Below, piece by piece: positions 12,132 through 50,728 of a stretch of 64,000 nt of DNA. Positions within the stretch are counted from its first letter, which is position 1; every line of letters begins with the position of its first letter. The notes under the pieces were generated by a model. It was not told the DNA's origin. It worked only from the letters and a program-made list of their open reading frames with translations, and made no database searches. The stretch is from Candidatus Nealsonbacteria bacterium. GTDB lineage: Bacteria > Patescibacteriota > Minisyncoccia > Minisyncoccales > DAOVPY01. The DNA is taken from positions 51,302 through 115,301 of the forward strand of contig DAOVPY010000001.1 of NCBI GenBank assembly GCA_030628945.1, in the 5' to 3' direction. The position numbers and the translations under genes were made by a program.

Positions 12132-12169
12132 ACCCTGTTAAATAGTTGCGAAGCAAATTTAACAGGGTA
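12132..12169. repeat. Small palindromic element with CCCTGTTAAA / TTTAACAGGG terminal inverted repeats (family copy 1)
   Basis: aCCCTGTTAAATagttgcgaagcaaATTTAACAGGGta, in the divergent region between pth and the 12207 gene. Confidence 0.7.
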
Positions 12170-12206
12170 AATATTGGAAGTTTTCCCCAGGGATTTTTCT
12201 TTTTAG

Positions 12207-13160
12207 ATGTGGTACAATAAATTAATGAACACCAAACCTTTATCACTCATACTCGGCGTCTTGGCAATGACAGGATTACTCAGTTACGTTGTCCTTGCCT
12301 GGACCGAGCCGTCTGTTGGTCCGCCCGGAGGCAATGTGACTCCGCCAATAAATACAGGAATAAATTATCAAGCCAAAGACGGGGATTTAGGTTTAAGAAC
12401 CTTTTACACAGACGATATCAAGATTGGAGGAGCTATCCCTGGCTTATATTCCGCGCACGGAAATCTAATCATCAAGAATAGCAGCAACAACACCACCCTG
12501 GAAATAGACGGCAGCACAGGCAATCTAAAGGTCAAAGATAGTTCAGGCGTCTTGGATTCTCTTTTTTCCAACGGAATTATTAAGGAGAAATTTTTGCCCT
12601 ATTGCGAGGAAGAAATAACCAGCGATGTTTATACCAATGGACAGAGCCAGGCAACCGGATGCAATTTTGGCGGGTATGACGGTTATTACAATATTTCCAA
12701 CTTAATCCCGGAAAACGTTAAAACCGGTGTGAGTTTTGGAAGGGGAGAGATAGGGGCGTTAGAAATATCAGAGATATTAGAGCAAGGCTGTGTGCTATTA
12801 GAAGGTAGTGGAAATTGCGTGCTTTGTAATACCGATTGTCCATCCGGATATACAGATAAGGGGAATTTGGATTTGATAAAAGAGCAGGGCTCTGGTATTT
12901 GTCACCTCGGAACCTCCAGAAACAACTACTACCGTCGTGGTAGTGTTGCGGGTTTTATTCGCTGTCTTGGCGGCAGGAGTGCCGACTGTAGGGATTGTAG
13001 TGGCAGGGGTGCCGCCAGTTCCTGTGTAGTTGAATATGGTGAATGTGCAATAGGAGAAAGGACAGGTGTAATGGTACATAGCGTGACCCATCCGCAAGGA
13101 AACCAGAGTAGGGTATATGACTGTCGTTGTATCCTGACCTTTAAATACTGTTGTCCCTAA
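12207..13160 (+). CDS. Secreted/membrane-anchored cysteine-rich hypothetical protein
   Basis: N-terminal hydrophobic anchor (LSLILGVLAMTGLLSYVVLAW). About 20 Cys in the C-terminal third (CVLCNTDCPSGY...CRDCSGRG...YDCRCILTFKYCCP). Confidence 0.4.
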   Translation: MWYNKLMNTKPLSLILGVLAMTGLLSYVVLAWTEPSVGPPGGNVTPPINTGINYQAKDGDLGLRTFYTDDIKIGGAIPGLYSAHGNLIIKNSSNNTTLEIDGSTGNLKVKDSSGVLDSLFSNGIIKEKFLPYCEEEITSDVYTNGQSQATGCNFGGYDGYYNISNLIPENVKTGVSFGRGEIGALEISEILEQGCVLLEGSGNCVLCNTDCPSGYTDKGNLDLIKEQGSGICHLGTSRNNYYRRGSVAGFIRCLGGRSADCRDCSGRGAASSCVVEYGECAIGERTGVMVHSVTHPQGNQSRVYDCRCILTFKYCCP

Positions 13161-13208
13161 GGGAAAAAATTGGGAGCAGTTCTATTTTTTGATTCTATTT
13201 TAAAATTT

Positions 13209-13236
13209 AAGCCCGCGCTTTCGGCGCGGGCTTTTC
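13209..13236 (+). terminator. Rho-independent terminator
   Basis: AAGCCCGCGC-TTTC-GGCGCGGGCTT followed by TTCC/T-rich sequence. Confidence 0.6.
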
Positions 13237-13277
13237 CAAAACCAGTTTCAAAAAATGTTTTACAAAAATAAAAAACT

Positions 13278-13859
13278 TTGTTAATATGTAGAAACATGAA
13301 AATCCTAAAAAACACCTTATTATTTTTTTGGGAAATCAGCAAGATAGTTATTATCGCGCTGCTGATAGTTGTTCCTATCCGCTATTTTATTTTTCAGCCA
13401 TTTTTTGTGAGGGGCCAGAGCATGGAACCGAATTTTCACAGCGGCGATTATCTGATTGTTGATGAAATTTCTTATCGTTTTACAGAACCAGCGAGAGGAG
13501 AGGTAATTGTGTTTAAGTATCCGCAGGACTCTTCTCAACGTTATATTAAAAGAATTATCGGTTTGCCCGGAGAAACAGTGGAAGTAAGAAAAGGAGAAGT
13601 AATAATTCAAACGAATGGTTCATTGAGCCGGCAATATGTTTTAGACGAGACAAATTATCTCGCTGATATTGTTCAGACTCCGGGTAGTATTAGTATTTCA
13701 TTAAGCGAGAGCGAATATTTTGTTTTAGGCGATAACAGGTCCTTTTCTTCTGATTCCAGGCGCTGGGGAGCGGTTTCCGAGGATGAAATTGTTGGCAGGG
13801 TGCTTCTGAGGATGTGGCCTTTTTTTGCTTTTGCTAAAATTGAAGCGCCGGGTTACTAG
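13278..13859 (+). CDS. lepB: Signal peptidase I
   Basis: Motifs GQSMEPNF (catalytic Ser), YIKRIIGLPGE (catalytic Lys region), GDNRSFSSDSRRWG. Start may be the ATG at 13296. Confidence 0.85.
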   Translation: MLICRNMKILKNTLLFFWEISKIVIIALLIVVPIRYFIFQPFFVRGQSMEPNFHSGDYLIVDEISYRFTEPARGEVIVFKYPQDSSQRYIKRIIGLPGETVEVRKGEVIIQTNGSLSRQYVLDETNYLADIVQTPGSISISLSESEYFVLGDNRSFSSDSRRWGAVSEDEIVGRVLLRMWPFFAFAKIEAPGY

Positions 13860-13886
13860 ATTCTCGCCTCGCTTTATTATAAGAAT

Positions 13887-15212
13887 ATGAGGAGACCAAA
13901 ATTTCAAAAACCAACCGGAATGCGCGATATTTTGCCGGAAGAGCAAAAGTATTTCCGAAAAATTTACGACACAGCGGAAAATATTGCTAATTTTTACGGT
14001 TTTCAAAAAATTGAAACGCCGATTGTGGAAGATGCCGAACTTTTTATTCGGGGGACCGGGCAATACACTGATATTATTGAGAAAGAAATGTACACTCTTC
14101 GGACCAAAGGAGGAGATTTGTTAGCTCTCCGGCCAGAGGGAACTCCGGGAATAGTAAGGGCTTACATTGAGAATGGGATGTTTAATCTGCCTTCGCCGGT
14201 GAAACTCTGGTATTTCGGCCCTTATTTTCGTTATGAACGTCCACAGGCGGGAAGGTTTCGCCAGTTCCATCATTTAGGATTTGAAGTTTTTAAGGAAAGA
14301 AGCCCTATTATTGATGTCCGGATTATTCAAATTTTTTATAATATTTTAAAGGAATTAAAATTTAAGAATTTAGTAATTAAAGTTAACAGTATTGGCGACA
14401 GTCAATGCCGGCCATATTACCGAAAACTTTTAGTAAGTTATTTTAAATCTCGGGAGGCGTTATTTTGTTTTAATTGCCGGAGAAGAATTAAAAAAAATCC
14501 TTTGCGAGTTTTGGATTGTAAAGAAGAAAAGTGCCAAAAAATTGTTAGTCAGGCGCCTCAGCTTATTGACCATCTTTGCGAGGAGTGCCATGCTCATTTT
14601 AGGGGCGTCTTAGAGTTTTTGGATGAAATTGAGATGCCTTATCAGTTAGATCCTTATTTAGTGCGCGGCTTGGATTATTACACCAAAACCGTTTTTGAGA
14701 TAATTGAGGACAGGCAGATGGTCAATGTTATTGAAGAAACTGAAAACAAAGAAGAAAAGCCAAAACCAGAGCCCCTGTCTTTAGTCGGCGGAGGGAGATA
14801 CGATGGTTTGGTGAAATTATTGGGAAGAAAAGACACGCCGGCCTGCGGCGGAGCCGCGGGCATAGAAAGAATAGTAAATCTTTTGAAAATTAAAAACGCA
14901 AAATTTTTCCAACCTCCGCGCGCAAAGATTTTTTTAGCGCAGCTGGGAGATTTAGCCAAGAAGAAATGCCTAAAACTCTTTGAAGATTTTAGGAAAGCGA
15001 ATATTATGATTGAGGAGTCGTTCAGCAAGGATTCTTTGAAAATTCAGTTGAAAATCGCTAACAGGCTGGGAGTGAATTATACTTTAATTTTTGGCCATAA
15101 AGAGGTTTTAGATAACACAATTATCATAAGAGAGATGAAGAGCGGCAGACAAGAAACAGTAAAAATGGACAAGGTGGTGGATGTGATGAAAAGAAAATTA
15201 AAGAAATCCTGA
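13887..15212 (+). CDS. hisS: Histidyl-tRNA synthetase
   Basis: Class II motifs: RDILPEE, FRYERPQAGRFRQFHQ, GGGRYDGL, and a C-terminal anticodon-binding domain. Confidence 0.95.
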   Translation: MRRPKFQKPTGMRDILPEEQKYFRKIYDTAENIANFYGFQKIETPIVEDAELFIRGTGQYTDIIEKEMYTLRTKGGDLLALRPEGTPGIVRAYIENGMFNLPSPVKLWYFGPYFRYERPQAGRFRQFHHLGFEVFKERSPIIDVRIIQIFYNILKELKFKNLVIKVNSIGDSQCRPYYRKLLVSYFKSREALFCFNCRRRIKKNPLRVLDCKEEKCQKIVSQAPQLIDHLCEECHAHFRGVLEFLDEIEMPYQLDPYLVRGLDYYTKTVFEIIEDRQMVNVIEETENKEEKPKPEPLSLVGGGRYDGLVKLLGRKDTPACGGAAGIERIVNLLKIKNAKFFQPPRAKIFLAQLGDLAKKKCLKLFEDFRKANIMIEESFSKDSLKIQLKIANRLGVNYTLIFGHKEVLDNTIIIREMKSGRQETVKMDKVVDVMKRKLKKS

Positions 15213-15216
15213 TAAT

Positions 15217-15573
15217 ATGCCCTGCTTGTTCTGTAAAATTATAAATAAGAAAGCGCGCGCGGATATAATCTATGAGGATGCTGAATTTTTGGTTTTTAAG
15301 AGCATAAAGCCGGTTGCGCCCATTCATATTTTGCTCGTTCCCAGAAAACATATTCCTTCCGCGCAACACTTAAAATCAGAAGATAAAGAATTAATCGGGG
15401 AGTTATTTTTACTTGCTGGAAAAATAGCCAAAAAACAAAACATTAGCAAAAAGGGCTATAAGCTGGTTTTTAACGTAGGCAAAGGAGGAGGACAAGTGAT
15501 TAATCATTTACACCTGCATTTGCTCGGTGGCTGGAAAACAGCCAAACAAAGAAATATTCCCGGAATGCCATAA
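15217..15573 (+). CDS. HIT-family (histidine triad) nucleotide hydrolase
   Basis: HLHLHLLGG histidine triad. CxxC near the N-terminus. Confidence 0.85.
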   Translation: MPCLFCKIINKKARADIIYEDAEFLVFKSIKPVAPIHILLVPRKHIPSAQHLKSEDKELIGELFLLAGKIAKKQNISKKGYKLVFNVGKGGGQVINHLHLHLLGGWKTAKQRNIPGMP

Positions 15574-15597
15574 AGAAAATTTTTTAATTTTTAGATT

Positions 15598-15816
15598 ATG
15601 TTGGAAGTTAAACGGAAAAAAAGAGAAAGCAATCAAAGTTTAGTCTACCGCTTTGGCAGAGGAGTTCAAAAAAGCGGAATTTTGTTTAGGAAAAGAAAAA
15701 TTCGCTTTCGCCAACATTCCAAAAGCGAGTATGCCCAAAAAAAAGCGACCCTGAGAAAGGAGGAACTAAAAAAAGAATATGAGAAATTGAAGAAATTAGG
15801 CAGGTTAAAGGATTAG
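15598..15816 (+). CDS. rpsU: Probable ribosomal protein bS21
   Basis: 72-aa highly basic protein. The pattern V.R....ES....RF.R....KSGIL...RK......PS..R..K matches S21. Confidence 0.5.
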   Translation: MLEVKRKKRESNQSLVYRFGRGVQKSGILFRKRKIRFRQHSKSEYAQKKATLRKEELKKEYEKLKKLGRLKD

Positions 15817-23420: not shown

Positions 23421-23711
23421 TTATTCTAAAATCGCCAGGATATCTTCTTCCTTGGCAATCAGATATTCTTTGTCCTGAATTTTTATCTCGTTTGGTCCGT
23501 ACTTGGTGAAAAGAACCTTGTCTCCTTGTTTTACGTCAACAGGGATTATTTTGCCTTCCTCTGTTTTTCTGCCCGGACCCACGGCAATAACTTTGCCTTG
23601 TTCCGGTCTTTCCTTTTCCGCTGTTTCCGGCAAAAGAATGCCGGTTTTTGTTTTTTCTTCTTCTTTAATCGCTTCAATGAGAATATGGTCTGACAATGGT
23701 TTTATTTTCAT
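23421..23711 (-). CDS. groS: Co-chaperonin GroES (Cpn10)
   Basis: MKIKPLSDHILIE...GKVIAVGPG... in a 96-aa protein. Confidence 0.95.
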   Translation of the reverse strand: MKIKPLSDHILIEAIKEEEKTKTGILLPETAEKERPEQGKVIAVGPGRKTEEGKIIPVDVKQGDKVLFTKYGPNEIKIQDKEYLIAKEEDILAILE

Positions 23712-23736: not shown

Positions 23737-23807
23737 ATCGACCTTTCCCCTGTTAAATAATTTTCCTTTTAGGAAAATTCCTGCTCGCCTTAAGCGAGCA
23801 TGGTTTA
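23737..23807. repeat. Small palindromic element with CCCTGTTAAA / TTTAACAGGGTGAA termini and two internal hairpins (family copy 2)
   Basis: CCCCTGTTAAATaa-ttttccttttaggaaaatt-cctgctcgccttaagcgagcatg-GTTTAACAGGGTGAA, upstream of groES. Confidence 0.75.
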
Positions 23808-23881
23808 ACAGGGTGAATTTTTGTTTCTATCTCTTAGTATTAAAAATAAAAACAAATTTGTCAATCCCGTCCCCCAAAAAC

Positions 23882-24456: not shown

Positions 24457-24484
24457 AATTAAAATAAGAATCAACATTGTTTTT

Positions 24485-24528
24485 AATCCATTACAAAATC
24501 GGACGATCGTCCGATTTTGTAATGGATT
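24485..24528. repeat. 44-bp perfect palindrome AATCCATTACAAAATCGGACGATCGTCCGATTTTGTAATGGATT (family copy 2)
   Basis: Direct read. Same outer arms as 21633 and 25248; the centre differs but stays palindromic (compensatory changes). Confidence 0.85.
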
Positions 24529-24588
24529 GTATTTTATGTTATTCTCTATATTAGAGTTAGAGAGTTAGAAATGTAATGTTTTGTTAAT

Positions 24589-25209
24589 ATGAAAAAAACA
24601 AAAAATTCAAAATACCTTTTTCAAAAAAGGAAAGCAAGTTTTACTAAAAAACTTTTTGAAAAAGGTTTAACCGCGACAAGTTATATATTGTTTGCGATTA
24701 AAGATTTTAGCGATAGTTTTCCTCAAGATTTGTTAAACGAACTTCCTAATTGTTATCCCGGATTTAAGTTTTTAAAAGATATGTTTGGCTGTAATTCTAA
24801 AAAAGAATTCAAGAAAGATACTATTAGAGTAAATATTTTCCGACTTAAAAAACAAGGTCTTATAACCGAAGCTGAAAATAAAAAATTTTGTCTCACCGCT
24901 AAAGGAGAGGAAATGGTCGCTTATATTAAGGACAGATATTCTATTTTAGAAAAACCCTGGGACAAAAAAATCAGGTTGGTTGTTTTTGATATTCCAGAGA
25001 GGGAAAAATATTTTAGGAGATGGCTTCGCGGAGAATTAGGATTATTATTGTTTAAACAACTTCAAAAAAGCGTTTATATCGGAAAATATCCAATTCCCGA
25101 TGATCTTTATCAAGATTTAATTAAAAACAATCTTTTTCAAAATGTGCATATTTTTACCATTAACGAGGCGGATAAACAGGAAGAATTGATGAAGTTATTA
25201 GAGAAGTAG
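24589..25209 (+). CDS. Putative transcriptional regulator: N-terminal winged HTH plus C-terminal Cas2-like/PaaX-C-like domain
   Basis: wHTH segment TIRVNIFRLKKQGLITEAENKKFCLTAKGEEMVAYI. The C-terminal segment IRLVVFDIPEREKYFRRWLRGELGLLLFKQLQKSVYIG aligns by pattern with the Cas2 N-terminus ([30 protein letters not shown]). Confidence 0.4.
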   Translation: MKKTKNSKYLFQKRKASFTKKLFEKGLTATSYILFAIKDFSDSFPQDLLNELPNCYPGFKFLKDMFGCNSKKEFKKDTIRVNIFRLKKQGLITEAENKKFCLTAKGEEMVAYIKDRYSILEKPWDKKIRLVVFDIPEREKYFRRWLRGELGLLLFKQLQKSVYIGKYPIPDDLYQDLIKNNLFQNVHIFTINEADKQEELMKLLEK

Positions 25210-25247: not shown

Positions 25248-25291
25248 CATCCATTACAAACTAATCCGATCGGATTAGTTTGTAATGGATG
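25248..25291. repeat. 44-bp perfect palindrome CATCCATTACAAACTAATCCGATCGGATTAGTTTGTAATGGATG (family copy 3)
   Basis: Direct read. Confidence 0.85.
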
Positions 25292-25387
25292 TTGGTTGTT
25301 AGTTTAGAAGTTGACAATTTTTTTTTTTAGATTTGTAATATGGAAATAATAATCGGGATTGACCCCCGCGCCTAATTAGGTGTGGGG

Positions 25388-25416
25388 GTTGACATATTTT
25401 TTGGGGTTTGTAAGAT
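25388..25416 (+). promoter_or_regulatory. Putative promoter (TTGACA-16-TAAGAT) giving a near-leaderless transcript; duplicated at 26175-26205
   Basis: TTGACAtattttttggggtttgTAAGATagaaaagtATG; the identical block precedes the paralog at 26210. Confidence 0.4.
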
Positions 25417-25424
25417 AGAAAAGT

Positions 25425-26102
25425 ATGACAAAGAAAAAAATTGGAGTTATTTTAGTAGTTGTTGGTTTTATCTTCATTATTGGAGGATTTTTTTGGTGGC
25501 AGCAAGATAAGATAGAAAGATTTTTGGAAAGTAAAAAAATAGAAAAAATGGTTGCGCCGTCTAAAGATTATAATGTAATAGAGAATTCCGGCGAAAAATT
25601 TCTTATTAATAAAAAGGATGAATTTAAAATAAAAATTCCTATAGGATGGGAGATTGAATTAGGAGACGATATGGAAATATTAAAATCAGACAGAGAGGTA
25701 ACCTTGTATTCAGAAGATTTCAGTTATCGTCCACCACAAGGATGTTTAATAAGAATACAAATTAATCGACTTCAAAAAACATGGATAGAAGAATACGGTG
25801 TAGATTTTGTAATGTATCCTTTTGAGGGAGCAGAAGAAATTAAAGAAATGATAAATTCTTATAAAGAAATTGCGTCGAAAGAAAAAGAGATAATACAAGA
25901 AAGAGGCGCCGAAATAATTTTAGTAGGTCAAAAGGAAGCCTTATGGGAACAGGAAGCTATTGGGTTAGGAGAAGTTATCGGAAAATATATTACTATTAAA
26001 GTTCCAACTGAAAATAAAGTGTATATTTTTAGAAATACGCAATTTTCTGAACGGTGCGATGAAGAATTGGAGAATTTTTTAGAAACAATTTCAATTGAAT
26101 AA
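25425..26102 (+). CDS. Hypothetical N-terminally membrane-anchored protein (paralog A)
   Basis: MTKKKIGVILVVVGFIFIIGGFFWW anchor; paralogous to 26210..26797, with shared N-terminus and C-terminal ...CxEEF(D/E)xFLxxISxE. Confidence 0.4.
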   Translation: MTKKKIGVILVVVGFIFIIGGFFWWQQDKIERFLESKKIEKMVAPSKDYNVIENSGEKFLINKKDEFKIKIPIGWEIELGDDMEILKSDREVTLYSEDFSYRPPQGCLIRIQINRLQKTWIEEYGVDFVMYPFEGAEEIKEMINSYKEIASKEKEIIQERGAEIILVGQKEALWEQEAIGLGEVIGKYITIKVPTENKVYIFRNTQFSERCDEELENFLETISIE

Positions 26103-26825: not shown

Positions 26826-29114
26826 ATGAATAAAGTAGTGGATATCCCATTTTTTTATATTTTTCTGCTAACAATGTTTTTGGCAGGTTTTTTAATGTCT
26901 TGTCAAATCTGTAAAGCTGAAGTTGAACTTGAACAAAAAGAAGCTGATAGGTTGCTTCATTCAATTCAACAGGGGCTAATAGATGAGTGGATAGACCTTA
27001 CTGCTTCGCTTAATTTTTCTGAGCCGGAAAAACAGGCAGATTTATTTTTAATCAGGAACGCTATCCAGCAAAAAGAATTAAATTACACTTTTAAGGAACT
27101 GCCCAAAGAATATTTAAAAAAACTGGTTAAAATAGGGATTTTGTTGGTTTTAGCGCCTGACGGAAGACTTATCTTAGAGGAATTGGAAAAAGAAAGTGTT
27201 AAAGAAGCAAAAAAAATTGCGCAAGATTGGCTTTTACAAAAGGAAATAAAAACCAGCAGCGGCAAATTAAAATATAATTTTACTTCTTACAAAAATAATA
27301 ACCAAGAAGCGCTTTTTTATTATAATTTGGCATATCATCCATTAGATAATGAATATGGAAAATTGATAATTGAATTTTATTCGCCAGAGGAAATTGAACC
27401 TAAAAAATCTACAGGAAATGTTTTATGGTTAAACGCTGCTTGTTGGGAGTTCAATGAATGGAAAAAACAGGGCAATGAGAAATTAAAGCCCTTTATAATG
27501 CGGGTTAAAGGCGAAATCAGTAAAACCCAATCTCGCTATAAATGGGAGAGAAATTTAGGTATTGAGATTATTTATAATGAATCAATGCCAAAATTTCCCA
27601 AAGAAGAAAAACCAGTCGGGTTTTTAGGAAAAATCAAAATAAGCGTTAAGAAAGAATTATTGAAAATCGTTCAAGAATATAAAGATATTTTTGACATTTT
27701 TACTCAAATTAAAGAAAAATTGCCCAAAATTAATCTTTTTAGCGCTGGATTGGTGGAGCAAAGTTTGGTAGAGGAGGCGACAGAAAAAGTTGGCAGAGAG
27801 CAGGTCTCTGCCGATTCAGCGGAGGTAGAGCCGGAACCGGAAATAGATTTAGAGGAAGTTGGCAGAGAACAGGTCTCTGCCGATTCAGAGGAGGTTGATG
27901 TGGTTCAATCAGATGAATCAAATGAATCGGTTGAATCGAACATATCAGAGGAATCAGTCCAATTAGAGGAATTGGTCCAATCAGAGGAAGCGGATTTGTC
28001 AGACGAATTGGGCGAATCAGACGAATCACACGAATCAGAGCCGGAGCCGGAGCCGCAAGCGCAACCAGAGCCGGAGCCGGAGCCAGCGCCCGCAGCAGAA
28101 TCAGAACCAGAATTATGCAAAGGTGTTTTTGCCAATCCAAAAATGTTCAGGGTTCTTATCAACGAGGTAGCATGGATGGGCAGTAAAAATTCCAGCAATG
28201 ATGAATATATTGAACTTAAAAATATCTGGGGAATTCCAGTTCATTTAGACGGCTGGCAATTATTGGACAAGAACCAGCAGATAAAAATAATTTTCAACAA
28301 AGACGATGTTATTCCCGCAAACGAATTTTATCTTTTGGAGCGGACAGACGATGACACAGTACCGGGTATTGAGGCAAATAAAATTTATACCGGAGCCCTT
28401 AATAATACTGATGAGGCGCTTTATCTTTTAGACAATAATTGTCAATTGGAAGATATGGTAACAGCTAATCCCGAGTGGCCTGCTGGCGATAATTCCACAA
28501 AGAAAACAATGGAGAGATTTGATGTTTTTTATTGGTACACTTTTCAAGGTTCCAGTCAGAATGGGATTTGGGGAACTCCGGGTAGGGAAAATAGTCCGGC
28601 GCCTCCTATTTATACTCGCAGCGCCGCGCCAGTTCTGTTGGCGCAGGAATCTGCGTTGCCTAAAATTTTGATTACCGAAGTCCAGGTTGAAGGCCAAACC
28701 TCAAAAGATGAGTTTATTGAACTTTACAATCCAAACAATGAAAGTGTTGATTTAACAAATTGGTATGTCCAGAGAAAAACAAAAAACGGCAAAATTAATT
28801 CTTACGCTCCAAATACCCTATTTTCCGGAAAAACAATTAAAGCAAAAAATTATTTTCTGATTGCTAACGCTTCTTCCACTTTTGCGACATCTGCGGATAT
28901 TGCCACTACTTATTCTCTAACTAAAAACAATACCCTGATTTTGAAAAATTCAGATAGAGAAATTGTTGACAAAGTTGGCTGGGGTCAAGCCCAGGATTTT
29001 GAAACCGCTGCCACAACCAATCCTTGCGCCGGAGAAAGCATTGGCAGAAAATGGGCCACAACAACGCAGGAATATCAGGACACAGACAATAATTCTCTTG
29101 ATTTTGAAATTTAG
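26826..29114 (+). CDS. Secreted surface protein with acidic low-complexity region and two lamin-tail (LTD) domains; N-terminal part of a longer reading frame ended by an in-frame TAG
   Basis: Signal/TM at the N-terminus. Acidic EPEPEP/SDES repeats. LTD signatures (VLINEVAWMGS...EYIELKNIWGIPVHLDGWQLLD; ILITEVQVEGQTSKDEFIELYNPNNESVDLTNWYV). It ends NNSLDFEI-TAG. Confidence 0.6.
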   Translation: MNKVVDIPFFYIFLLTMFLAGFLMSCQICKAEVELEQKEADRLLHSIQQGLIDEWIDLTASLNFSEPEKQADLFLIRNAIQQKELNYTFKELPKEYLKKLVKIGILLVLAPDGRLILEELEKESVKEAKKIAQDWLLQKEIKTSSGKLKYNFTSYKNNNQEALFYYNLAYHPLDNEYGKLIIEFYSPEEIEPKKSTGNVLWLNAACWEFNEWKKQGNEKLKPFIMRVKGEISKTQSRYKWERNLGIEIIYNESMPKFPKEEKPVGFLGKIKISVKKELLKIVQEYKDIFDIFTQIKEKLPKINLFSAGLVEQSLVEEATEKVGREQVSADSAEVEPEPEIDLEEVGREQVSADSEEVDVVQSDESNESVESNISEESVQLEELVQSEEADLSDELGESDESHESEPEPEPQAQPEPEPEPAPAAESEPELCKGVFANPKMFRVLINEVAWMGSKNSSNDEYIELKNIWGIPVHLDGWQLLDKNQQIKIIFNKDDVIPANEFYLLERTDDDTVPGIEANKIYTGALNNTDEALYLLDNNCQLEDMVTANPEWPAGDNSTKKTMERFDVFYWYTFQGSSQNGIWGTPGRENSPAPPIYTRSAAPVLLAQESALPKILITEVQVEGQTSKDEFIELYNPNNESVDLTNWYVQRKTKNGKINSYAPNTLFSGKTIKAKNYFLIANASSTFATSADIATTYSLTKNNTLILKNSDREIVDKVGWGQAQDFETAATTNPCAGESIGRKWATTTQEYQDTDNNSLDFEI
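27789..27900. repeat. 69-nt in-frame tandem coding repeat (~1.6 copies), each containing the hairpin GGCAGAGA(A/G)CAGGTCTCTGCC
   Basis: VGREQVSADSAEVEPEPEIDLEE / VGREQVSADSEEVD. The hairpins at 27792-27812 and 27861-27881 are identical to the terminator stem at 5656-5676. Confidence 0.8.
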
Positions 29115-33328: not shown

Positions 33329-34090
33329 ATGACTGATCAGGAACTTATTCAAAAAATTAAAGAATTGAAGCAAATTAAACCCAGCCAGGACTGGGTCGTT
33401 TCGTGTAAAAACCGAATTTTAAGCGAAGAACAAGAGAACAGAGAATTTGAACAAAGCCCGGCTTTGACCAATTTTGGGTTTTTGCGGTTTGTTTCTGATT
33501 TTGTCAGGGATTATAAATTAACCCTTAAACCGGTGTTAGTTACTGCTGTTTGTTTTGGAATTATAGTGGGGCTTTTCGGTTTTACCCAAAACACCGTGCC
33601 AGGCGATTTTTTCTATTCCGTAAAGAAAGTAAAGGAAATCACTCAGGTCGCTTTTTCTCCTGACGGGCAGAAGTCAATAGTTTATCTTCAATTTGCCAAT
33701 AAGCGGTTAGAGGACTTAAAAAAGATTGCGGAAAGCAATGATGTAAGGAATTTGGCTCCCTGTCTTGAGGACTTTCAGGCGAATATCTCTGAAGCGGCAA
33801 AGGATTTAGTAAAAATAGATGTGAACGTTACCAGTTCAGACCCGAGCATAATCAAAGGTATTGTTAAGCAGACCCAGGAATTAGAAAAGAAAAAAGCGGA
33901 AGTTAAGACATTTGGCATTGTGCTGGGCGAGAACAAAGAATGGGAAAACGCTGTCGCTGATTTTGTGGAAACGCAAATTAATGGATTGGAAGGCATGGTT
34001 GAGAAAGAGCAGTTGGAAGAAATCAAGCAACTTGAGCAGGAAGGAAATTTCACCGCAGCCCTGGAAAAGATTTTATTTTTGAGTTATTAA
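33329..34090 (+). CDS. Putative anti-sigma factor / DUF5667-like membrane protein
   Basis: Immediately downstream of the ECF sigma gene. Cytoplasmic N-terminus, single TM (VLVTAVCFGIIVGLFGF), extracytoplasmic helical domain. Confidence 0.35.
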   Translation: MTDQELIQKIKELKQIKPSQDWVVSCKNRILSEEQENREFEQSPALTNFGFLRFVSDFVRDYKLTLKPVLVTAVCFGIIVGLFGFTQNTVPGDFFYSVKKVKEITQVAFSPDGQKSIVYLQFANKRLEDLKKIAESNDVRNLAPCLEDFQANISEAAKDLVKIDVNVTSSDPSIIKGIVKQTQELEKKKAEVKTFGIVLGENKEWENAVADFVETQINGLEGMVEKEQLEEIKQLEQEGNFTAALEKILFLSY

Positions 34091-34233
34091 AATTAAAAAT
34101 CAGGAGGTCGTTAATCCGCTTTTTTTGGATGTCGCGTTAAGCGCTAAAAAGAAATTTCTAATATCCAAAAGCAGCGGCTCGGTCGATAACGACAATAGAA
34201 ATAATAGTAAAAAGTCGATTAAAAAATTATTTA

Positions 34234-34306
34234 CTCTGTTAAATACCCGGCCCTTCTGCGAAAGGCCGGGTGTCCCGCTAAAAGCGGGGCGTTTAACAGG
34301 GTGAAC
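34234..34306. repeat. Small palindromic element with (C)TCTGTTAAAT / GTTTAACAGGGTGAAC termini and two internal GC hairpins (family copy 3)
   Basis: tCTGTTAAATa-cccggcccttctgcgaaaggccggg-tgt-cccgctaaaagcgggg-cGTTTAACAGGGTGAAC, immediately upstream of the giant surface protein gene. Confidence 0.7.
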
Positions 34307-37300
34307 GAAAAAATAAAAATGTCTAATTTAGTAAAAAAGATTGTAGCGACTGCCACGGCTCTTACTTGCGCCGTAATGATGCTGGCTCCAGTAGGGGTTC
34401 AGGCTCTTACCGCGGAAGAACTTCAGGAACAGATTACTCTTCTGATGGCTCAATTAACCGAGCTGCAGGACCAATTAGCTGTTTTAGAAGGTGAAGAACC
34501 GGAAGTAGCAGAAGTTACTATTGAAGGCGTTCCCGCTGATTTTACTTTTGAGACCAATCTTTCTCAGGGAATGAGCGGAGATGAATGTAAATACCTTCAA
34601 ATCGTGTTGAATTCCGACGTTGACACCCAATTGGGTGAAACCGGCGTTGGTTCTGCTGGATATGAAACAACCTATTTTGGTCCTTTGACCAAAGGAGCGG
34701 TTGTTCTTTTTCAGGAGAAATACACTGAAGATGTTTTGGCTTACTGGAATTTGACTTCCGGCACAGGTTATGTCGGTTCAACAACCAGAGCCAAACTAAA
34801 CGAACTTTTAGCAGCTGTAGTAATTCCGGTAATTCCTGTAACTCCTGCTGGCTGTGAATGTACGGTTTGGGTAGATGATGTTTGTGGAGGCGGAGATTGT
34901 TCAGCTGATGAAATGCAGCAAACCCGAACTTGTACTCCTGAAGAAGGAGCTGAAGAGGATGTTTGCGAAGGTACTGTTGTAAGTCAATGCGTAGCGGATT
35001 CATCCTGCGTAGTTGCTGAAGATATTACTATTAGTTTAGCCGCTGACACGCCTGGCACGAGCCAAGTGGCAAAAAACGCGCAAGATGTGATTTTCACCAA
35101 AGTGAAATTCACCGGCGGCACAAGCGGAGTAACTGTAAGCAAAGTAATAGTGGCGCGGGGCGGTGTTTCAGCAGACGCTGATGTTGCTTCCATTAAATTA
35201 TACGATGGAGCGACTAGACTTGGTTCAACTCAGGCGCTGAATACCCTTACCCACAAAGCAACATTTTCCAGTTTGTCCTGGGAAATCCCGGCTGGAGAGA
35301 CCAAATACTTAACTATTAAAGGAAGTATTGCCACTTCTCCGACAGTCGGTGATTCCGTGAGATTAGGAATTGCTTTGGCTACCGATGTTACGGCTGACCA
35401 GGTTCTTACCGGCGTTTACCCAATTTGGGGAAAATCAAAGACCATTGCCGGTATTTCCGTAGGCGGGCTTGATGTAACCAAACAGACCTCGCCGGCAGAG
35501 GCAACGATTTTATCCGGCGCTGTTGACCAGGATATTGCCGCGTGGAAGTTTTACGCCAGCACTACCGAAGGTTTTTCTATTTCTCAAATTATTGTTACCC
35601 ATGTGGGTTCCGCGACTGTCAATGACGTCAAGAACATCAAATTAAAGGTTTCCGGAGTTCAAATTGGAGAAACAATAGAAACGTTAGACAGCCAGAATAA
35701 AGCTGTGTTTGACTTATCATCTCCTTTGGTTCTTAACGCGGCAACGAGCAAGATTGTCCACGCTCATTGCGATGTCGCTGGAGGAATTTGGACATCCAGA
35801 ACAATTAAATTTGAAATTACCCAATACACTGATGTTACGGCTTACGGAGCCAATTCCGGCGGCGCGACTGTTATTACCACCGACCCATTTGCTACTTACA
35901 CCAAACAGACAGGTAATCTGATGACTATTGGACAGGGCAGTTTGACTGTGGCGGTTGACGCGGCTCTGAATCCAGCGGCGCAGACATATGTGAAAGGAAC
36001 CACTGAAAGGGATTTTGTAGCTTACAAGTTCACTACCGGCTCAAGAGAAGGAGTGAGAGTGACTAAACTGCGGTTCAAATTAGAGTCTGCTGACGGAGCC
36101 ATTACCGGTTCTGCGACTGATATTTCCAATATCACTCTTTGGGACGGCACTACTCAGGTTGGCGGCACTGCCAGCGTAATTGGTTCTTACGTTACTTTTG
36201 GAGCCAACACAGTTGGCTATGACGTTTCCGGCTTATTTGATGTAGAGAAATCCACGAACAAGACCATTGTGTTAAAAGCGGATATTCCTTCAGGAGCCAC
36301 TTCGGACCATACATTGGCTTTGGAACTTGACACATATACTGATATTTGGATTGACGGTTTATCCTCGGAATACGATATTGACCAAACTGCCACTAACATC
36401 GTTCTTACAGGCACTGGCAAGAGACATACTGTTTCCGGCAGCGGCAGTTTAGCGGTTTCTTTATCGGCCAACACGCCTCCTGCTCAGACATATGTGATTG
36501 GTTCTACCGAGAAAGAATTTACCAGGATTAATCTTACCGCCGGTTCTGGCGAAGACATTCTGGTTACCGCAATCACCTTGGATATTTTGTCAAATACTAA
36601 TATTGCCAGTACAGGCGCTCATCTTATTAACGTAAAATTGGTGAACGCGGCTGATGGAGTTCAATTTGGTTCTACTGTGCCCAATCCAAGCGCTACCGCC
36701 GACTTTACCGGCAATATCACTGTTCCGGCTTCAGGCACAGTAAGCTTAAAAGCCATTGCGAATGTTCCGACAACAAATTATCCTGTTCCTAATTCTTCAA
36801 TTGAGATAGCGTCTGGAGCTACCGGCGGCACAGTGATAGCCGACGCCATAGAGTCAACAGGCGTTTATTCTTCGGCAACTATTACCGAGACCGGTTCTGC
36901 AGACGGCAAGAATATTACTATTAGCGCTGGTGGTTTGACTGTCGCGGCTGCGGCAAGTCCGGCTGACCAGACCCTGATTAAGGGAGCCAGCGAGGTTCCT
37001 TTTGTCGGGTTGGTAATGACCGCTGACACTGCGGAAGATGTGAGAGTTACTTATATTAAGTTGACTGTTAACACCGAGGGCGCTGCTGGATTGGCTTCTA
37101 CCACTGATATTTCCAATATCGGACTTTACGACGGCGACACTCGCTTGACTGTTAAAAAGAATTTAACTGTTTCTGCCGAAACAACCTATCCAGGGTCAGT
37201 CCATCACACTGTTGCTTATACTGCTTCTGATTTCCTGAATTCTCAGGGTATTACCGTTACCAAGGGCCAGCAAAAAACCATTACGGTAAAAGCTGACCTG

Positions 37301-47339: not shown

Positions 47340-48318
47340 AGATAGAAAAGAATGGCTGGATTTATTGGACAAAGTTTTATTTAAGACATTTTTTCATAAT
47401 TTGGAATGGGAAAGTTTTTTAGAGAAGCAATTTAAGTGGTTGAAATTTGAAAGATATGTTTGGCGCAATCAGGCGCTTTTGAGCTTGGCGCGAGTTAAAA
47501 TTATGGGCAAGGAAAAATTGGTTTCTCATCCCTTCTGCGAGTACGGCGGACCTTTGCCCCTTAAACACGGAATTGTTTGGCAGGAATTTCGCGATGATAT
47601 TTTTTCTATTTTCAAAATTCCCGTTCAAATCAGTTTTCATCCGCAAGTTTTAAGATATTTTCAGGGAATTTCCTTTGACAAATCTGACGCATTGAACAGC
47701 GCTTATTTTATAGAAAATTTTCGTCAAAAGAGCCCTGAACAAATTTTTTCTTGTTTCAGAAAGACGCTTAGGCATTCAATAAAAAAAGCCGAAAGAGAAA
47801 ATTTTGAAATTAAAAGATGCGAGAATAAAAAGGAGATGAAAGATTTTTACAGAATCTATCTTAAAACCGAAAAAAGACATAAATCCATTCCTTATCCATT
47901 TTCTTTTTTTAATTTTTTTTTCAATTCGCAAAATTCAGAAATAATATTGGCTAAATTCAAAGATAAAGTAATTGCCGGAAGCGTGTTTCTTTTTTATGAT
48001 AAATTTATTCATTATTCCAAGAATGCTTCCGATGAAAAATATAAAAATTTAGGCGCCAATTATTTGATTCTATGGAACGAGATTAAAAAGTGCGCGCGCA
48101 AAGATTACGAAATTTTTGATCTTGGAGGGACTGGCAGGGATTCAAGTTTGGAAGTTTTTAAAAGAGGATGGGGAAGTCAGGAACGCCCTATTTTTGAATT
48201 GAGCAGCCAAGCCCCGGGAAATAGTTTTAAAGATTCAAAATTAAGGGAGATTTTTGGGCTCTTGCCCGATTTTTTAATAGAAAGAATCAGCCCTTATTTA
48301 CTTAAATACAAACTCTAA
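47317..48318 (+). CDS. FemAB-like / BioF2-like GNAT acyltransferase
   Basis: About 330 aa with a C-terminal GNAT-like region (SVFLFYDKFIHYSKNASDEKYKNLGANYLILWNEIKKC) typical of the FemAB/lipid-II peptidyltransferase fold. Confidence 0.4.
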   Translation: MKNFQRIKDRKEWLDLLDKVLFKTFFHNLEWESFLEKQFKWLKFERYVWRNQALLSLARVKIMGKEKLVSHPFCEYGGPLPLKHGIVWQEFRDDIFSIFKIPVQISFHPQVLRYFQGISFDKSDALNSAYFIENFRQKSPEQIFSCFRKTLRHSIKKAERENFEIKRCENKKEMKDFYRIYLKTEKRHKSIPYPFSFFNFFFNSQNSEIILAKFKDKVIAGSVFLFYDKFIHYSKNASDEKYKNLGANYLILWNEIKKCARKDYEIFDLGGTGRDSSLEVFKRGWGSQERPIFELSSQAPGNSFKDSKLREIFGLLPDFLIERISPYLLKYKL

Positions 48319-48320
48319 AG

Positions 48321-49445
48321 ATGTTTTTTGTCCACCCGCAAATTAGGTTTAATAATTTATGGAGAGCGGTTTTCTCTTTATTTAAGAGGTCTGATTTAGA
48401 GCGCCTTAATCAGAATCTTTCTGAATACTTTCCAAAAAAGCAGTTCATTTTTACTGATATGGGTAGGTCGGCTTTTAAGGTTATAATTGAAAAATTCAAT
48501 CTGCAAAATTCTGAAATTCTTTTTCCGGCTTATATCTGCGATATTTTTTACCCAATTTTGAAGCAATATAACATTAAGCCAATTTTTTTGGATATTGATT
48601 TAGAGACCTTTCATATCAGAATTGATGAGATTAAGAAAAAAATCACTGCCAAAACCAGAGCAATTTTAGTTTGCCATACTTATGGTTTGCCCGCGGATAT
48701 CCAGGAAATTAGAAAAATTGTCGGTCAGGATATTTCCATTATTGAAGATTGCGCCCATTCTTTTGGCGCTGAATGTGATGATAGTTTTGTCGGAAATTTA
48801 GGGGATGTTTCTTTTGTAAGTTTATACAAGCAATTTCCCTGTTTAAGGGGCGGGTTGCTGGTTTGTCCCCAGGATTGGCGAATTTCTCTGCCAAAAACCT
48901 GTTTTAATTTTCGGGATTTTATTTCTTTTCTAAATTGCTTCTCGCCTTTTGCCTGGTTTTTTAAAAAATTCGGCGGGAAAGTGGCGCCTAAAATGATTAG
49001 AAAAGAAAAATCATTGAGGCCCACGAGGATTAACAGAGTTTCTTTAAATCTTTTTTCTGATTTTCTGAATGATTTTGAGAAATCATTGAAAAGGAGAAAA
49101 GAATTAGCCCTATTTTTTCAGGAAGAACTTAAAAAATTAGGATTTGAGGTTCAAAGCCATGAAGATAATATATTTTGTTATCTCTCGGTTTTAGTTCATA
49201 AAAATTTAGATGGGAAAAGAGATGAAATTATCCAGAAATTGAGAAAATACCGTGTTTTTTGCACCCGAATGTGGCATACCCCTATTATTTTAAATAAACA
49301 AGCCCGAAAAGAATATGAGATTAATTTAGATGAGTTTCCCAATGCCGTGGAAGCGGCTAAAAGAATTATCAATTTTCCTTTGCAAAATTACTACGCAAAA
49401 AAAGATATTGAAAAAATTATTAAAGCGATAAAAAAAGTTATATGA
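48321..49445 (+). CDS. DegT/DnrJ/EryC1/StrS-family PLP-dependent sugar aminotransferase
   Basis: IIEDCAHSFGA...VSFVSLYKQFP (PLP-lysine region), ~370 aa. Confidence 0.6.
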   Translation: MFFVHPQIRFNNLWRAVFSLFKRSDLERLNQNLSEYFPKKQFIFTDMGRSAFKVIIEKFNLQNSEILFPAYICDIFYPILKQYNIKPIFLDIDLETFHIRIDEIKKKITAKTRAILVCHTYGLPADIQEIRKIVGQDISIIEDCAHSFGAECDDSFVGNLGDVSFVSLYKQFPCLRGGLLVCPQDWRISLPKTCFNFRDFISFLNCFSPFAWFFKKFGGKVAPKMIRKEKSLRPTRINRVSLNLFSDFLNDFEKSLKRRKELALFFQEELKKLGFEVQSHEDNIFCYLSVLVHKNLDGKRDEIIQKLRKYRVFCTRMWHTPIILNKQARKEYEINLDEFPNAVEAAKRIINFPLQNYYAKKDIEKIIKAIKKVI

Positions 49446-50728
49446 GCCCCCACACCAAACAACCACATACTTCGTTTTTTGACGCCAAGGGCGATAGTGG
49501 TTGTTATGGTGTAGGGGTGAGGATTTTAATGCCGGTTCTGCATTACGACCCGGTGATTGGCGGTTTGGAAATTTGGACCAAAAATATCGCTGAGCGGCTT
49601 TCTGAAAAAGCGGAAATTTTTGTTATTACGGGCAGAGTACGCAATCAGCCAAGACAAGAAATTAAAAGTCGGGTTTACATCTTTCGGACATCTTTATTTT
49701 CCTTAAAAAATCTTTCTTATTCCTCGCCAATTTATATTCTGACTACTCTGCCTTTTATATTTTTTCAATCCCTATTATTGATTAAAAAATATAGGTTCAA
49801 CCTATGCCATTGCCAGGGTTTTTTGAGTTCGTTTCTGGGGTATTTGCTGTTTAAGCTTTGTAAAGTTTCTTATGTTGTTACGGTTCAGCGTCAGGAAAAA
49901 AAGAGTTTTTTGAGAAAGTTGGTTTATAAAAACGCGGTTTGTTGTATTGCCGCAAGTTCATACATTAAAAGATATTTTGAAGAAATTGGAGTTAAAAATA
50001 TAGAAATAATTCCCAACGGAATTGATATAGATAGGTTTCAGGTTTCAGGTTCCAGGTTTAAGATGAGAGAAAAATTAGGCGTAAAAGACGAATTTTTGAT
50101 AATGACCGTGGCCCGGTTGGAAAAAGTAAAAGGAATAAAATATCTCATAAAAGCAATCCATATTCTAAATACAGCAGCGAGGACGGGCCTCACTGCTGGC
50201 TTCGGGAATATAAGATACATAATCATTGGGGAGGGGAGCGAGAGAAAAAATTTGGAAAATTTGGTTAAAGAATTGAATTTAGAGAAAAAGGTTCACCCCG
50301 TTAAACCCTCCGCTAAAAGCGGAGGAATTCCGCCAAAAGCGGAATTGTTTAACAGGGTAAAATTTTTGGGAGAAATTCCCAATGAAAAAATTCCAGAGTA
50401 TCTTACGGCAGCGGATTGTTTTGTTCTGCCTTCTATCAAAGAAGGATTTGGCATTGTTCTTTTGGAAGCAATGGCCGCGGGTGTTTCTGTAATTGCGACA
50501 AATGTTGGGGGAATTCCTGATTTAGTTGAAGACGGGAAAACAGGGATTTTAATTGAACCAAAGAATCCCAAAGAGATTGCCGAAGCAATAATGAAAATTT
50601 ACCCCCAGCCAAAATTTACACAAAATTTAACAAAAAACGCGCGAAATAATTTAGAAAAATATAATTGGCAAAATATCGCAGAAAAAGTTTATGAAAATTA
50701 TATTAGCCACTCCAATTTATCCGCCTGA
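49442..50728 (+). CDS. GT4-family glycosyltransferase carrying an in-frame heptamer array and an in-frame palindromic-element insertion
   Basis: EGFGIVLLEAMAAGVSVIATNVGGIPDLV. Inserts: GGTTTCA x4 (RFQVSGSRFKM) and a 66-nt element encoding HPVKPSAKSGGIPPKAELFNRV. Confidence 0.75.
   Translation: MSPHTKQPHTSFFDAKGDSGCYGVGVRILMPVLHYDPVIGGLEIWTKNIAERLSEKAEIFVITGRVRNQPRQEIKSRVYIFRTSLFSLKNLSYSSPIYILTTLPFIFFQSLLLIKKYRFNLCHCQGFLSSFLGYLLFKLCKVSYVVTVQRQEKKSFLRKLVYKNAVCCIAASSYIKRYFEEIGVKNIEIIPNGIDIDRFQVSGSRFKMREKLGVKDEFLIMTVARLEKVKGIKYLIKAIHILNTAARTGLTAGFGNIRYIIIGEGSERKNLENLVKELNLEKKVHPVKPSAKSGGIPPKAELFNRVKFLGEIPNEKIPEYLTAADCFVLPSIKEGFGIVLLEAMAAGVSVIATNVGGIPDLVEDGKTGILIEPKNPKEIAEAIMKIYPQPKFTQNLTKNARNNLEKYNWQNIAEKVYENYISHSNLSA
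50034..50060. repeat. Heptanucleotide tandem repeat GGTTTCA x ~3.9 inside the GT4 CDS
   Basis: Direct read: ggtttca ggtttca ggttcca ggttta. Confidence 0.85.
50291..50360. repeat. Small palindromic element (family copy 4) inserted in-frame in the GT4 CDS: GTTCACCCCGTTAAAC - two tandem hairpins - GTTTAACAGGGTAAA
   Basis: gGTTCACCCCGTTAAACc-ctccgctaaaagcggag-gaa-ttccgccaaaagcggaa-ttGTTTAACAGGGTaaa. It shares termini and the CCGCTAAAAGCGG hairpin with the intergenic copies at 23737 and 34234. Confidence 0.8.

Follow-up and report, generated by a model that had tools for sequence, protein, structure and literature searches.

A T-shaped palindromic DNA repeat found in at least four bacterial phyla and inserted in frame in a glycosyltransferase gene of Candidatus Nealsonbacteria

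A 64,000-nt stretch of a Candidatus Nealsonbacteria metagenome-assembled genome (MAG) (Patescibacteria, or candidate phyla radiation [CPR]), referred to here as the window, contains short palindromes with similar ends, three of them between genes and one inside the open reading frame (ORF) of a GT4 glycosyltransferase. The locus raises the question of whether these sequences are copies of one element and, if so, what kind of element can occupy both spacers and a conserved protein. An earlier reading of the window alone, the original prediction, had proposed a family of four copies that resembles Rickettsia palindromic elements (RPEs) and MITEs (miniature inverted-repeat transposable elements) or, alternatively, a family of structured RNAs. 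We found that the four sequences are genuine copies of one repeat family, beyond chance, and that this family is spread through at least four bacterial phyla. It is very probably a nonautonomous mobile DNA repeat that behaves like REP/REPIN sequences, MITEs, and RPEs.

All four inverted pairs are present in the window (Table 1). The arms, CCCTGTTAAA and TTTAACAGGG, are exact in copies 1 and 2; in copy 3 as well as copy 4, the left arm deviates at one position. With up to one mismatch allowed, the arm 10-mer occurs 18 times in the window compared to 7.5 ± 2.8 times in shuffled sequences, none of 100 of which reached 18. Inverted arm pairs no more than 160 nt apart number five, with 0.74 expected. 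A fifth candidate (26898-26974; 3 + 1 arm mismatches) was rejected, its fold being no better than that of shuffles (z = -0.47). The RNA folds of the four copies are far better than those of shuffled sequences on both strands (z of -6 to -9.5), and the same applies to their DNA folds (z of -6 to -9.7; -13.3 kcal/mol and z of -7.3 for copy 1, z of -9.7 for copy 2). Copy 1 has one inner hairpin (GCGAAGC), and copies 2 to 4 have two, which yields a T-shaped single strand. The one-arm form of copy 1 was also seen at L054 7333-7367, where labels of this type denote loci from other genomes, each a piece of 8 to 21 kb. Since neither end of copy 1 is TTCA/TGAA, its orientation is ambiguous. A covariance model built from relatives in other genomes recovered exactly these four copies in the window, with E values of 5e-6, 4e-14, 1e-8, and 9e-17 for copies 1 to 4, respectively, and zero further copies in another ~18.4 kb (9.5 + 8.9 kb) of the same scaffold outside it.

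The three intergenic copies lie relative to genes as the original prediction had placed them. Copy 1 sits between the divergent pth gene (11527-12096, minus strand, start at 12096) and the 12207 gene. The core of copy 2 begins upstream of groES (minus strand), 36 nt from the start codon at 23711. Copy 3 lies between a DUF5667 gene (33329-34090) and a 1482-aa ORF (34301/34320-38749), ending ~15 nt before the ATG at 34320. The recurrence of CCGCTAAAAGCGG in copies 3 and 4, also predicted, was seen in both; it forms arm 2 of copy 3 and arm 1 of copy 4. Of the predicted coordinates, those of copies 1, 3, and 4 were right within a few bases, and those of copy 2 (23737-23807) were about 7 to 10 nt too far left.

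Table 1. Repeat copies, the interrupted GT4 gene, and the empty DegT site in the window. Positions of the four copies include 4 flanking nt.
Feature	Position	Core	Arms (left/right)	Strand	Description
Copy 1	12129-12171	12133-12167	12133-12142/12158-12167	Ambiguous	One-arm variant: TAAA-CCCTGTTAAAT-AGTTGCGAAGCAA-ATTTAACAGGG-TAAA
Copy 2	23744-23817	23748-23813	23748-23757/23804-23813	+	T-shaped: TTTC-CCCTGTTAAAT-(AATTTTCCTTTTAGGAAAATT)-(CCTGCTCGCCTTAAGCGAGCATGG)-TTTAACAGGG-TGAA
Copy 3	34230-34305	34234-34301	34234-34243/34292-34301	+	T-shaped, canonical TTTA...TGAA on the plus strand
Copy 4	50292-50361	50296-50357	50296-50305/50348-50357	-	T-shaped, canonical TTTA...TGAA on the minus strand
GT4 glycosyltransferase ORF	49442-50728			+	Carries copy 4 in frame; extra residues ~284-305 (VHPVKPSAKSGGIPPKAELFNR)
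Empty site	48340-48350			+	AAATTAGGTTT, where L124 carries a 60-nt element at the 5' end of a DegT aminotransferase ORF

The GT4 gene that harbors copy 4 lies on a 316-kb metagenome scaffold, and the nearest named relatives of its protein are from Candidatus Nealsonbacteria. The predicted in-frame addition of 22 aa was borne out: the insert reads VHPVKPSAKSGGIPPKAELFNR, and an alignment of GT4 orthologs, the check that the original prediction had proposed, showed the block of 21 to 22 aa to be missing from 17 of the 17 closest sequences (62 to 77% identity). In these, LEKK is joined directly to V(K/R)FLG (...LNLEKK-V(K/R)FLG...). The GT4 DNA of the closest relative, L124, is also uninterrupted (...GAGAAAAAAGTAAGGTTTTT...). 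Aligned at this site, GAGAAAAAAGTAAGGTTTTTAGG in L124 corresponds to GAGAAAAAGG(TTCACCCC...AACAGGG)TAAAATTTTTGGG in the window, with no duplication beyond a 2-nt overlap, GT. The inserted block, 50292-50357, comprises 66 nt, that is, TTCA plus the 62-nt core, and the TAAA at 50358-50361 represents the preexisting flank. In an AlphaFold model of the protein (mean predicted local distance difference test score [pLDDT] of 82), values below 50 are confined to residues 1-24 and 284-303. The insert is modeled without secondary structure between helix 268-277 and strand 306-310 of the C-terminal Rossmann domain. Because it is absent from all of the closest orthologs and is modeled as a disordered loop, the block is a true in-frame insertion that, measured against these lineages, is recent and, judging from the model, structurally tolerable. 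At the other end of the same ORF, the first ~25 to 29 residues (49442-49530) have no counterpart in 15 of the 17 orthologs, and pLDDT is below 50 at residues 1-24. As the orthologs begin at MKILMPV, the true start is probably near residue 26 to 30, at either V26, which aligns with the M of MKILMPV, or M30.

The reciprocal situation is found at the DegT aminotransferase ORF, where L124 is occupied and the window is empty. The L124 element (8830-8889) is 60 nt long, a 56-nt core plus 4 nt, and the window has uninterrupted AAATTAGG in its place. The flanks of this element align contiguously with window positions 48141-48546 at 77% identity. Metagenome scans for the GT4 and DegT sites returned no strain-level empty alleles.

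Copies are thus present outside the window in a related genome, and they also occur in about 80 others. Neither condition by which the original prediction could have been refuted, a block common to all GT4 orthologs or an absence of additional copies, was borne out. Scanning species-representative genomes for CCCTGTTAAA-N25-55-TTTAACAGGG gave matches at no fewer than 119 loci from 86 assemblies. Among the loci listed, ~43 derive from many lineages of Patescibacteria, ~32 from Desulfobacterota, 13 from WOR-3, and 9 from Omnitrophota; single loci among these matches are labeled Bacteroidota, Armatimonadota, Acidobacteriota, Cloacimonadota, and Stahlbacteria. About five matches (Gemmataceae, Mucilaginibacter, Clostridium, Mediterraneibacter, and Neobacillus) were discarded as chance palindromes without other features of the family. 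Positions that had not been searched for are conserved as well, with T at arm position 11 in 243 of 257 ends and TTYA outside it. For 83 of the 126 distinct elements, the minimum-energy fold is a stem with two hairpins, mostly with 3-nt loops of TTT, TTC, AAA, or GAA. Although MAG binning underlies some of these labels, distinct subfamilies, set in sequence contexts particular to them, occur in each of Desulfobacterota, WOR-3, and Omnitrophota. The original prediction had therefore underestimated both the extent of the family and its anatomy, namely, the cross-phylum spread, the 15-nt asymmetric terminus, and the T-shaped fold.

The repeat is apparently undescribed. At Rfam gathering thresholds, only a tRNA was matched in the window, and a search of three element-bearing loci at an E value of ≤1 gave no overlap with the element except for one chance match to a microRNA model (E = 0.24). 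BLAST searches with the consensus element produced zero matches in 72,556 plasmids and 50,697 phages. A scan of IMG/VR revealed one copy, on a contig where it lies 15 nt downstream of a gene for a phage terminase. Neither sequence strings nor keywords turned up relevant literature on this repeat. Small palindromic dispersed repeats that can colonize coding sequences are already known as a kind of element. To our knowledge and according to these searches, three features are new: the presence of one family with an invariant terminus in several phyla whose members are mostly uncultivated, its T-shaped architecture, and its asymmetric, duplication-free insertion.

In its commonest orientation, the element reads 5'-(flank TTTA)-CCCTGTTAAAT-(arm 1)-(arm 2)-ATTTAACAGGG-TGAA-3' and measures ~45 to 75 bp, up to ~150 bp. 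The 15-nt terminus, TTYACCCTGTTAAAT, is present at both ends as inverted repeats. The 11-nt arms, CCCTGTTAAAT and ATTTAACAGGG, pair into a stem whose sequence is invariant across phyla. Four outer bases prolong this stem, and because they are asymmetric (TTTA...TGAA), one strand has a conserved T·G mismatch that reads C·A on the opposite strand. The interior usually consists of two short tri-loop hairpins that are free in sequence and strictly kept in pairing, and either single strand folds to a T shape. In an alignment of the 150 best covariance-model matches, pairing was observed in 95% of all cells and 97% of arm cells, and 14 of 14 arm pairs were changed on both sides. The covariation score was 0.386, compared to 0.119 in shuffles (0 of 500) and at most 0.073 with the 3' partner slid; it should be noted that these absolute numbers lean toward structure, as the alignment is model fitted and includes many elements on both strands. 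In the stem, the 11 pairs are practically invariant and show no covariation. The lack of covariation in a helix over distances of this kind suggests that the stem is recognized by its sequence and is not maintained for pairing alone. The arms are modular: two L110 copies share arm 2 and differ in arm 1, and either the long AATT-type arm or the short GC arm can come first with respect to the end asymmetry (~13 versus 6). Variants of 147 to 149 bp (L052 and L065) have the same ends and the T shape, with ~70 nt of AT-rich cargo in arm 1.

The two ends of the element are not equivalent. The combinations TTTA...TGAA (22 elements) and TTCA...TAAA (11 elements) account for 33 cases versus 5 symmetric ones (TTCA...TGAA, 3; TTTA...TAAA, 2). 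Within Patescibacteria, the end pairs are CA/TA in 28 cases, CA/CA in none, and TA/TA in 2. Of 63 nonredundant elements in which TTCA is found at one end only, 34 have TAAA as the flank on the other side, 7 have GAAC, and CAAG, TTAA, and TAGA occur in 3 each, which can be summarized as NAAN. In both clean occupied/empty pairs, GT4 and DegT, the added DNA corresponds to the core and 4 further nt, and any duplication is limited to 2 nt. The empty GT4 site of L124 already has a TAA-like TAAG, and the empty DegT site of the window has TAGG. Further empty versions were found in L061 (WOR-3) and in L084 and L112 (Desulfobacterota). In the simplest reading of these sequences, the mobile unit would be TTCA plus core or, equivalently, core plus TGAA, put beside a NAAN/TTTA flank without duplication. 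Given the precision of these junctions, parsing the unit as CA-core-TA inserted into the middle of TT^AA fits equally well. A strand preference is suggested by the strict subset with exact TTTA...TGAA ends, in which that strand is antisense to neighboring genes, at 14:4 for tandem genes and 22:5 versus the majority gene strand, these counts not being independent, since they include copies of the same lineage.

Within genomes, the copies are dispersed. Near-identical copies in both orientations were found in single genomes (L032, L037, and L057), abutting or tandem copies have a single common spacer of 3 to 4 nt (L014, L044, L057, L079, and L089), and in a nested case one copy replaces an arm of another (L099). 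Spacers that contain a copy are tandem, divergent, or convergent in 70, 14, and 13 cases, equal to the background of 309, 77, and 69, and the distances of copies to gene starts and to gene ends are alike. A promoter or terminator role is thus given no support by the position statistics. The neighbors are housekeeping genes such as pth, groES, ftsE/ftsX, prfB, ybeY, and tyrS, and some genes are flanked by two copies (ftsE, ybeY, tyrS, an aldolase, and others). All-versus-all clustering of the ORFs of all loci for a recurrent neighbor gene gave only ABC ATPases and ribosomal-operon genes. Pfam scans of the genes beside or between copies identified housekeeping functions only, with no recurring transposase or recombinase. 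A search of ~0.94 Mb of loci for inverted arm pairs 200 to 4000 nt apart yielded no insertion sequence (IS) with these ends; the candidates for an autonomous element turned out to be pairs of separate small copies or chance matches, for example, in L104 inside a thiolase gene.

Three individual locations were recorded in addition. In the Patescibacterium locus L017 (2500-2680), three perfect DnaA boxes (TTATCCACA) are found around a copy, and this stretch is probably the replication origin region of the genome. In L067, from a complete Nealsonbacteria genome, a copy at 1194-1257 is located in the rRNA operon spacer, ~30 nt upstream of the 23S rRNA 5' end. The whole 6934-bp contig L009 is a perfect palindrome in which the copies at 679-734 and 6201-6256 are mirror images with mirrored flanks. 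It is probably an assembly artifact at an inverted repeat and was left out of the statistics.

Besides the GT4 gene of the window, copies interrupt or separate the Pfam domains of KsgA (L022), another GT4 protein (L042), DsbD_2 (L075), and MotA/ExbB (L083), and linker copies occur in holB, encoding DNA polymerase III delta', of a Patescibacterium (L120 1865-1926) and of a member of the Omnitrophota (L072 5538-5607). The hallmark of RPEs, in-frame insertion with the ORF kept open, was observed in all of these, twice in holB. Read on the sense strand, five of nine copies in coding sequences encode (V/I)HPVK...(L/Q)FNRVK, and the rest begin with FTLLN (LTLLN in L070). The frames are this regular because only one frame is open through the right-hand arm and open frames are selected for. 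The two holB copies are independent insertions that both keep the frame and occupy much the same position, in the linker that follows the delta2 domain.

About a quarter of the copies are flanked by direct repeats of 7 to 12 nt, and ~75% are without them. Some of these repeats are up to 35 nt away from the element, and in L005, L012, L026, L064, and L065 the flanks are mirrored in the order a-b-element-b-a. A systematic search for a target duplication of fixed length found none that is general and two weak registers, mostly from single lineages. The flanking repeats are not regular target duplications, and no mechanism that we considered accounts for them. In WOR-3, the direct repeat preexists in the empty site, and in one Desulfobacterota subfamily the repeats travel with the unit.

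The lineage subfamilies have peculiarities of their own. That of WOR-3/Stahlbacteria (L015, L019, L023, L030, L055, L061, L069, L071, L087, L092, and L117) combines the same 11-nt arms with a 40-nt interior that lacks the two hairpins. The direct repeat (AA)CCACAGA stands on both sides of it, preceded by GTATTGTCAAAAATCT, and the empty version at L061 7150-7330 already has a tandem CACAGAGAG repeat. In Desulfobacterota, a ~200-bp palindromic repeat with its own inverted ends (GAGGCTGATGGAAAA...) has the T-shaped core at its center (L080 ~900-1200); relatives occur in L016, L018, L020, L028, L040, L041, L060, L077, L078, L094, L096, L104, and L121. Because a copy of the ~200-bp repeat at L084 6190-6375 is without the core, one repeat has colonized another. 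An apparent inversion of the interior at an "orthologous" site of L106 and L115 was rejected: the two belong to a subfamily with longer inverted ends, and the site is not orthologous.

Taken as a whole, the element is best explained as a nonautonomous, dispersed, palindromic DNA repeat that is mobile or was so recently, an explanation that we consider probable when the proposed mechanism is included. The unit inserted is the core and four bases at one end, beside a NAAN flank, mostly TAAA, with a duplication of no more than 2 nt. According to the proposed mechanism, a sequence-specific protein supplied in trans would recognize the invariant stem, most likely as a folded single strand in the manner of HUH enzymes (IS200/IS605 and REP-RAYT) or of attC/Xer, not of a cut-and-paste DDE transposase. 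Most copies come to lie in short spacers flanked by housekeeping genes, and those in coding sequences survive only if their length and frame keep the ORF open, adding a loop of ~20 aa, commonly (V/I)HPVK...(L/Q)FNRVK. A single-strand route fits better than DDE transposition because duplication is absent, one end is constant and the other flank-like, the invariant stem contains a conserved mismatch, the arms are hairpins, and there is a hint of strand bias. We hold this folded-single-strand route tentatively, at clearly less than even likelihood. Several observations weigh against the explanation as a whole or in part. The ends are inverted repeats, unlike those of IS200/IS605, which counts against the single-strand route, as do direct repeats that abut some ends and the weak strand bias of the wider set with one TTCA end (21:15 for tandem genes, 32:18 [P = 0.06] relative to the majority gene strand, and 34:18 [P = 0.04] by GC skew). 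The junctions are good only to about ±2 nt, since the occupied/empty pairs compare different species (73 to 83% identity). Perfect hairpins could also be kept by a templating mechanism instead of selection, and some phylum labels rest on MAG binning. No mobilizing gene was found in ~1 Mb of flanking DNA, so mobility in trans is a proposal. Lastly, 8-mers directly repeated in both 40-nt flanks accompany 24% of copies compared to 4.8% of intergenic controls, a roughly 5-fold excess, and those that abut the ends like an 8-bp duplication (ATCTGCGT in L064/L114 and GCAAATCA in L084) would fit a DDE transposase.

These repeats bear on the possibility that the element is a classical MITE, the deleted derivative of a DDE IS whose transposase binds the duplex 14- to 15-bp terminal inverted repeats, cuts and pastes the unit, and duplicates a short target. 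Its inverted ends, small size, many copies, and AT-rich insertion sites would be typical of a MITE, the 147- to 149-bp variants have the same ends, and the abutting repeats of 7 to 8 nt keep a constant register at some copies. We nonetheless regard a MITE as unlikely, because the two cleanest occupied/empty pairs lack a duplication of more than 2 nt, most copies have no flanking repeat, and where repeats occur they preexist in the empty site (WOR-3) or, elsewhere, travel with the unit. Moreover, the ends are systematically asymmetric (33 versus 5), the termini are 5'-CA...TG/TA-3', the reverse of the usual TG...CA, and neither an IS with these ends, among arm pairs 200 to 4000 nt apart, nor a match in the plasmid and phage collections was found. 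The likeness to RPEs and MITEs drawn in the original prediction therefore holds for behavior and not for membership, given the lack of target duplication in the occupied/empty pairs and of a parent IS, a length shorter than that of RPEs, and an unrelated host range. A conserved host recombinase of the Xer/IntI tyrosine family, recombining a folded hairpin or cruciform into AT-rich sites, would explain why the stem is identical across phyla. The GTTAAAT/ATTTAAC contained in the stem would fit the attC R-box consensus, GTTRRRY/RYYYAAC, and the outer 8 nt of the dif XerD arm (TTATGTTAAAT); a hairpin with variable terminal structure and a conserved mismatch is attC-like, and the absence of target duplication and the common 3- to 4-nt spacer of abutting copies would also agree. 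The polarity is, however, opposite to that of attC, with GTT in the 5' arm and AAC in the 3' arm instead of 5'-RYYYAAC...GTTRRRY-3'. There is no second (L) box, no pattern of extrahelical bases, no array next to an integrase gene, and no recombinase gene near any copy, and the flanks TTTA and TGAA are not the identical overlap expected from tyrosine recombination, all of which makes a substrate of this kind quite improbable. More improbable still is a structured RNA with a three-way junction, either cis regulatory or a small RNA. Very stable folds, strong covariation in both inner helices, a conserved mismatch that is a G·U wobble on one strand, and the position of the three intergenic window copies, which end 15 to 36 nt from a start codon, speak for an RNA. 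This alternative of the original prediction fared poorly all the same: Rfam gave no match with either gathering or E-value thresholds, copies occupy genomic contexts in background proportions without preference for gene starts or ends, and they occur in both orientations, the strand with the G·U pair tending to lie antisense to neighboring genes. In-frame copies in at least six conserved protein domains or linkers, tandem and nested copies, presence/absence differences between related genomes, and an 11-bp stem that never covaries also argue against it. It is possible, if doubtful, that the dispersed DNA repeat is the substrate of an undescribed system in which the invariant 11-bp stem and the conserved T·G mismatch of a T-shaped single strand or cruciform are read by one conserved protein, such as an HUH nuclease or an Xer-like recombinase, and possibly a universal host enzyme parasitized by the element. 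The same 15-nt terminus would then persist in Patescibacteria, Desulfobacterota, WOR-3, and Omnitrophota while the interior turns over.

Known small palindromic repeats come from a small number of well-studied groups and are each lineage specific, with REPs in enterobacteria and pseudomonads, RPEs in Rickettsia, and Correia elements in Neisseria. RPEs, which measure ~100 to 150 bp and are not known outside Rickettsia, are alike in being small palindromic repeats, dispersed in a reduced genome, that occupy intergenic DNA as well as conserved genes, which they enter in frame with the addition of a peptide that is tolerated; neither they nor the present repeat have a mobilizing enzyme assigned to them. 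In contrast to RPEs, the element described here is ~45 to 75 bp (up to ~150 bp), with a two-arm T fold and an invariant 11-bp stem across Patescibacteria, Desulfobacterota, WOR-3, and Omnitrophota. REP/REPIN sequences, mobilized by RAYT (TnpA_REP, HUH Y1), are likewise numerous hairpin repeats in housekeeping-gene spacers and operons in both orientations, nonautonomous, without target duplication, and may be recognized as folded single strands. However, REPs have a GTAG-like tetranucleotide beside a single imperfect palindrome, are species specific, and coevolve with a REP-flanked RAYT gene, whereas here the ends are TTYA/TRAA without GTAG, the closing stem of a branched hairpin is conserved across phyla, and no RAYT-like gene was found in the loci examined. 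IS200/IS605 elements and their miniature derivatives (PATEs) appear to share the lack of duplication, a preferred tetranucleotide at one end and a different conserved one at the other (TTTA^...TGAA^ here, with junctions known to ±2 nt from cross-species pairs, versus TTAC^...TCAA^ in IS608), hairpins close to each end, and some sign of a strand bias. Their ends are not inverted repeats, unlike the 15-nt ones here, and their hairpins, not linkers, are conserved and protein bound; the present loci yielded no Y1 transposase as a partner, and in the full set the strand bias is weak.

Integron attC sites are also imperfect palindromes, of 50 to 150 nt, and act as folded single strands, as the element may. 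They likewise have a conserved basal stem carrying a GTTRRRY/RYYYAAC motif, a terminal structure that varies and is sometimes branched, and mismatches by which the strand is defined. Membership in this class was rejected because the polarity of the motif is reversed here (GTTAAAT...ATTTAAC). The copies also differ from attC in having no L box, cassette array, or intI, and in lying singly among housekeeping genes and in coding sequences. The inverted terminal repeat (ITR) of parvoviruses (adeno-associated virus [AAV]) has the same T topology, in which two short arms, with A/T loops of 3 nt, are closed by a long stem and can stand in either order as in flip/flop. The AAV ITR is the telomere of a linear single-stranded DNA virus bound by HUH Rep, whereas the element is an isolated chromosomal insertion, and the likeness is one of shape only.

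The family thus represents one element with an invariant terminus in ~80 species-level genomes of at least four phyla, mostly uncultivated, and its hosts include minimal CPR genomes, which are thought to carry little mobile DNA. If the family is real, and the evidence points that way, it is a marker either of gene flow between phyla or of an enzyme that they share, and it supplies essential genes (KsgA, holB, and glycosyltransferases) with insertions that form protein loops. It would also be a trap for gene callers and MAG assemblers, and a tractable substrate of 50 to 70 nt with a defined fold for finding the mobilizing enzyme. Should the reading as an undescribed system be true, the element would represent a new class of hairpin transposon across much of the uncultivated bacterial world.

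The window also contains a second, unrelated palindrome family. Its two copies, 24486-24530 and 25249-25292, have the arms ATCCATTACAAA and TTTGTAATGGAT and differing centers, each centered on CGATCG. Both are intergenic and flank a gene with a PaaX-like/Cas2-like domain at 24589-25209. Weak covariance-model matches at 24482-24531 and 25248-25291 were assigned to this CGATCG-centered family and rejected as copies of the T-shaped repeat. Just upstream of the ORF at 25425, a GC-rich hairpin, GGGATTGACCCCCGCGCCTAATTAGGTGTGGGGGTTGACA, at 25354-25392 holds two TTGAC motifs.

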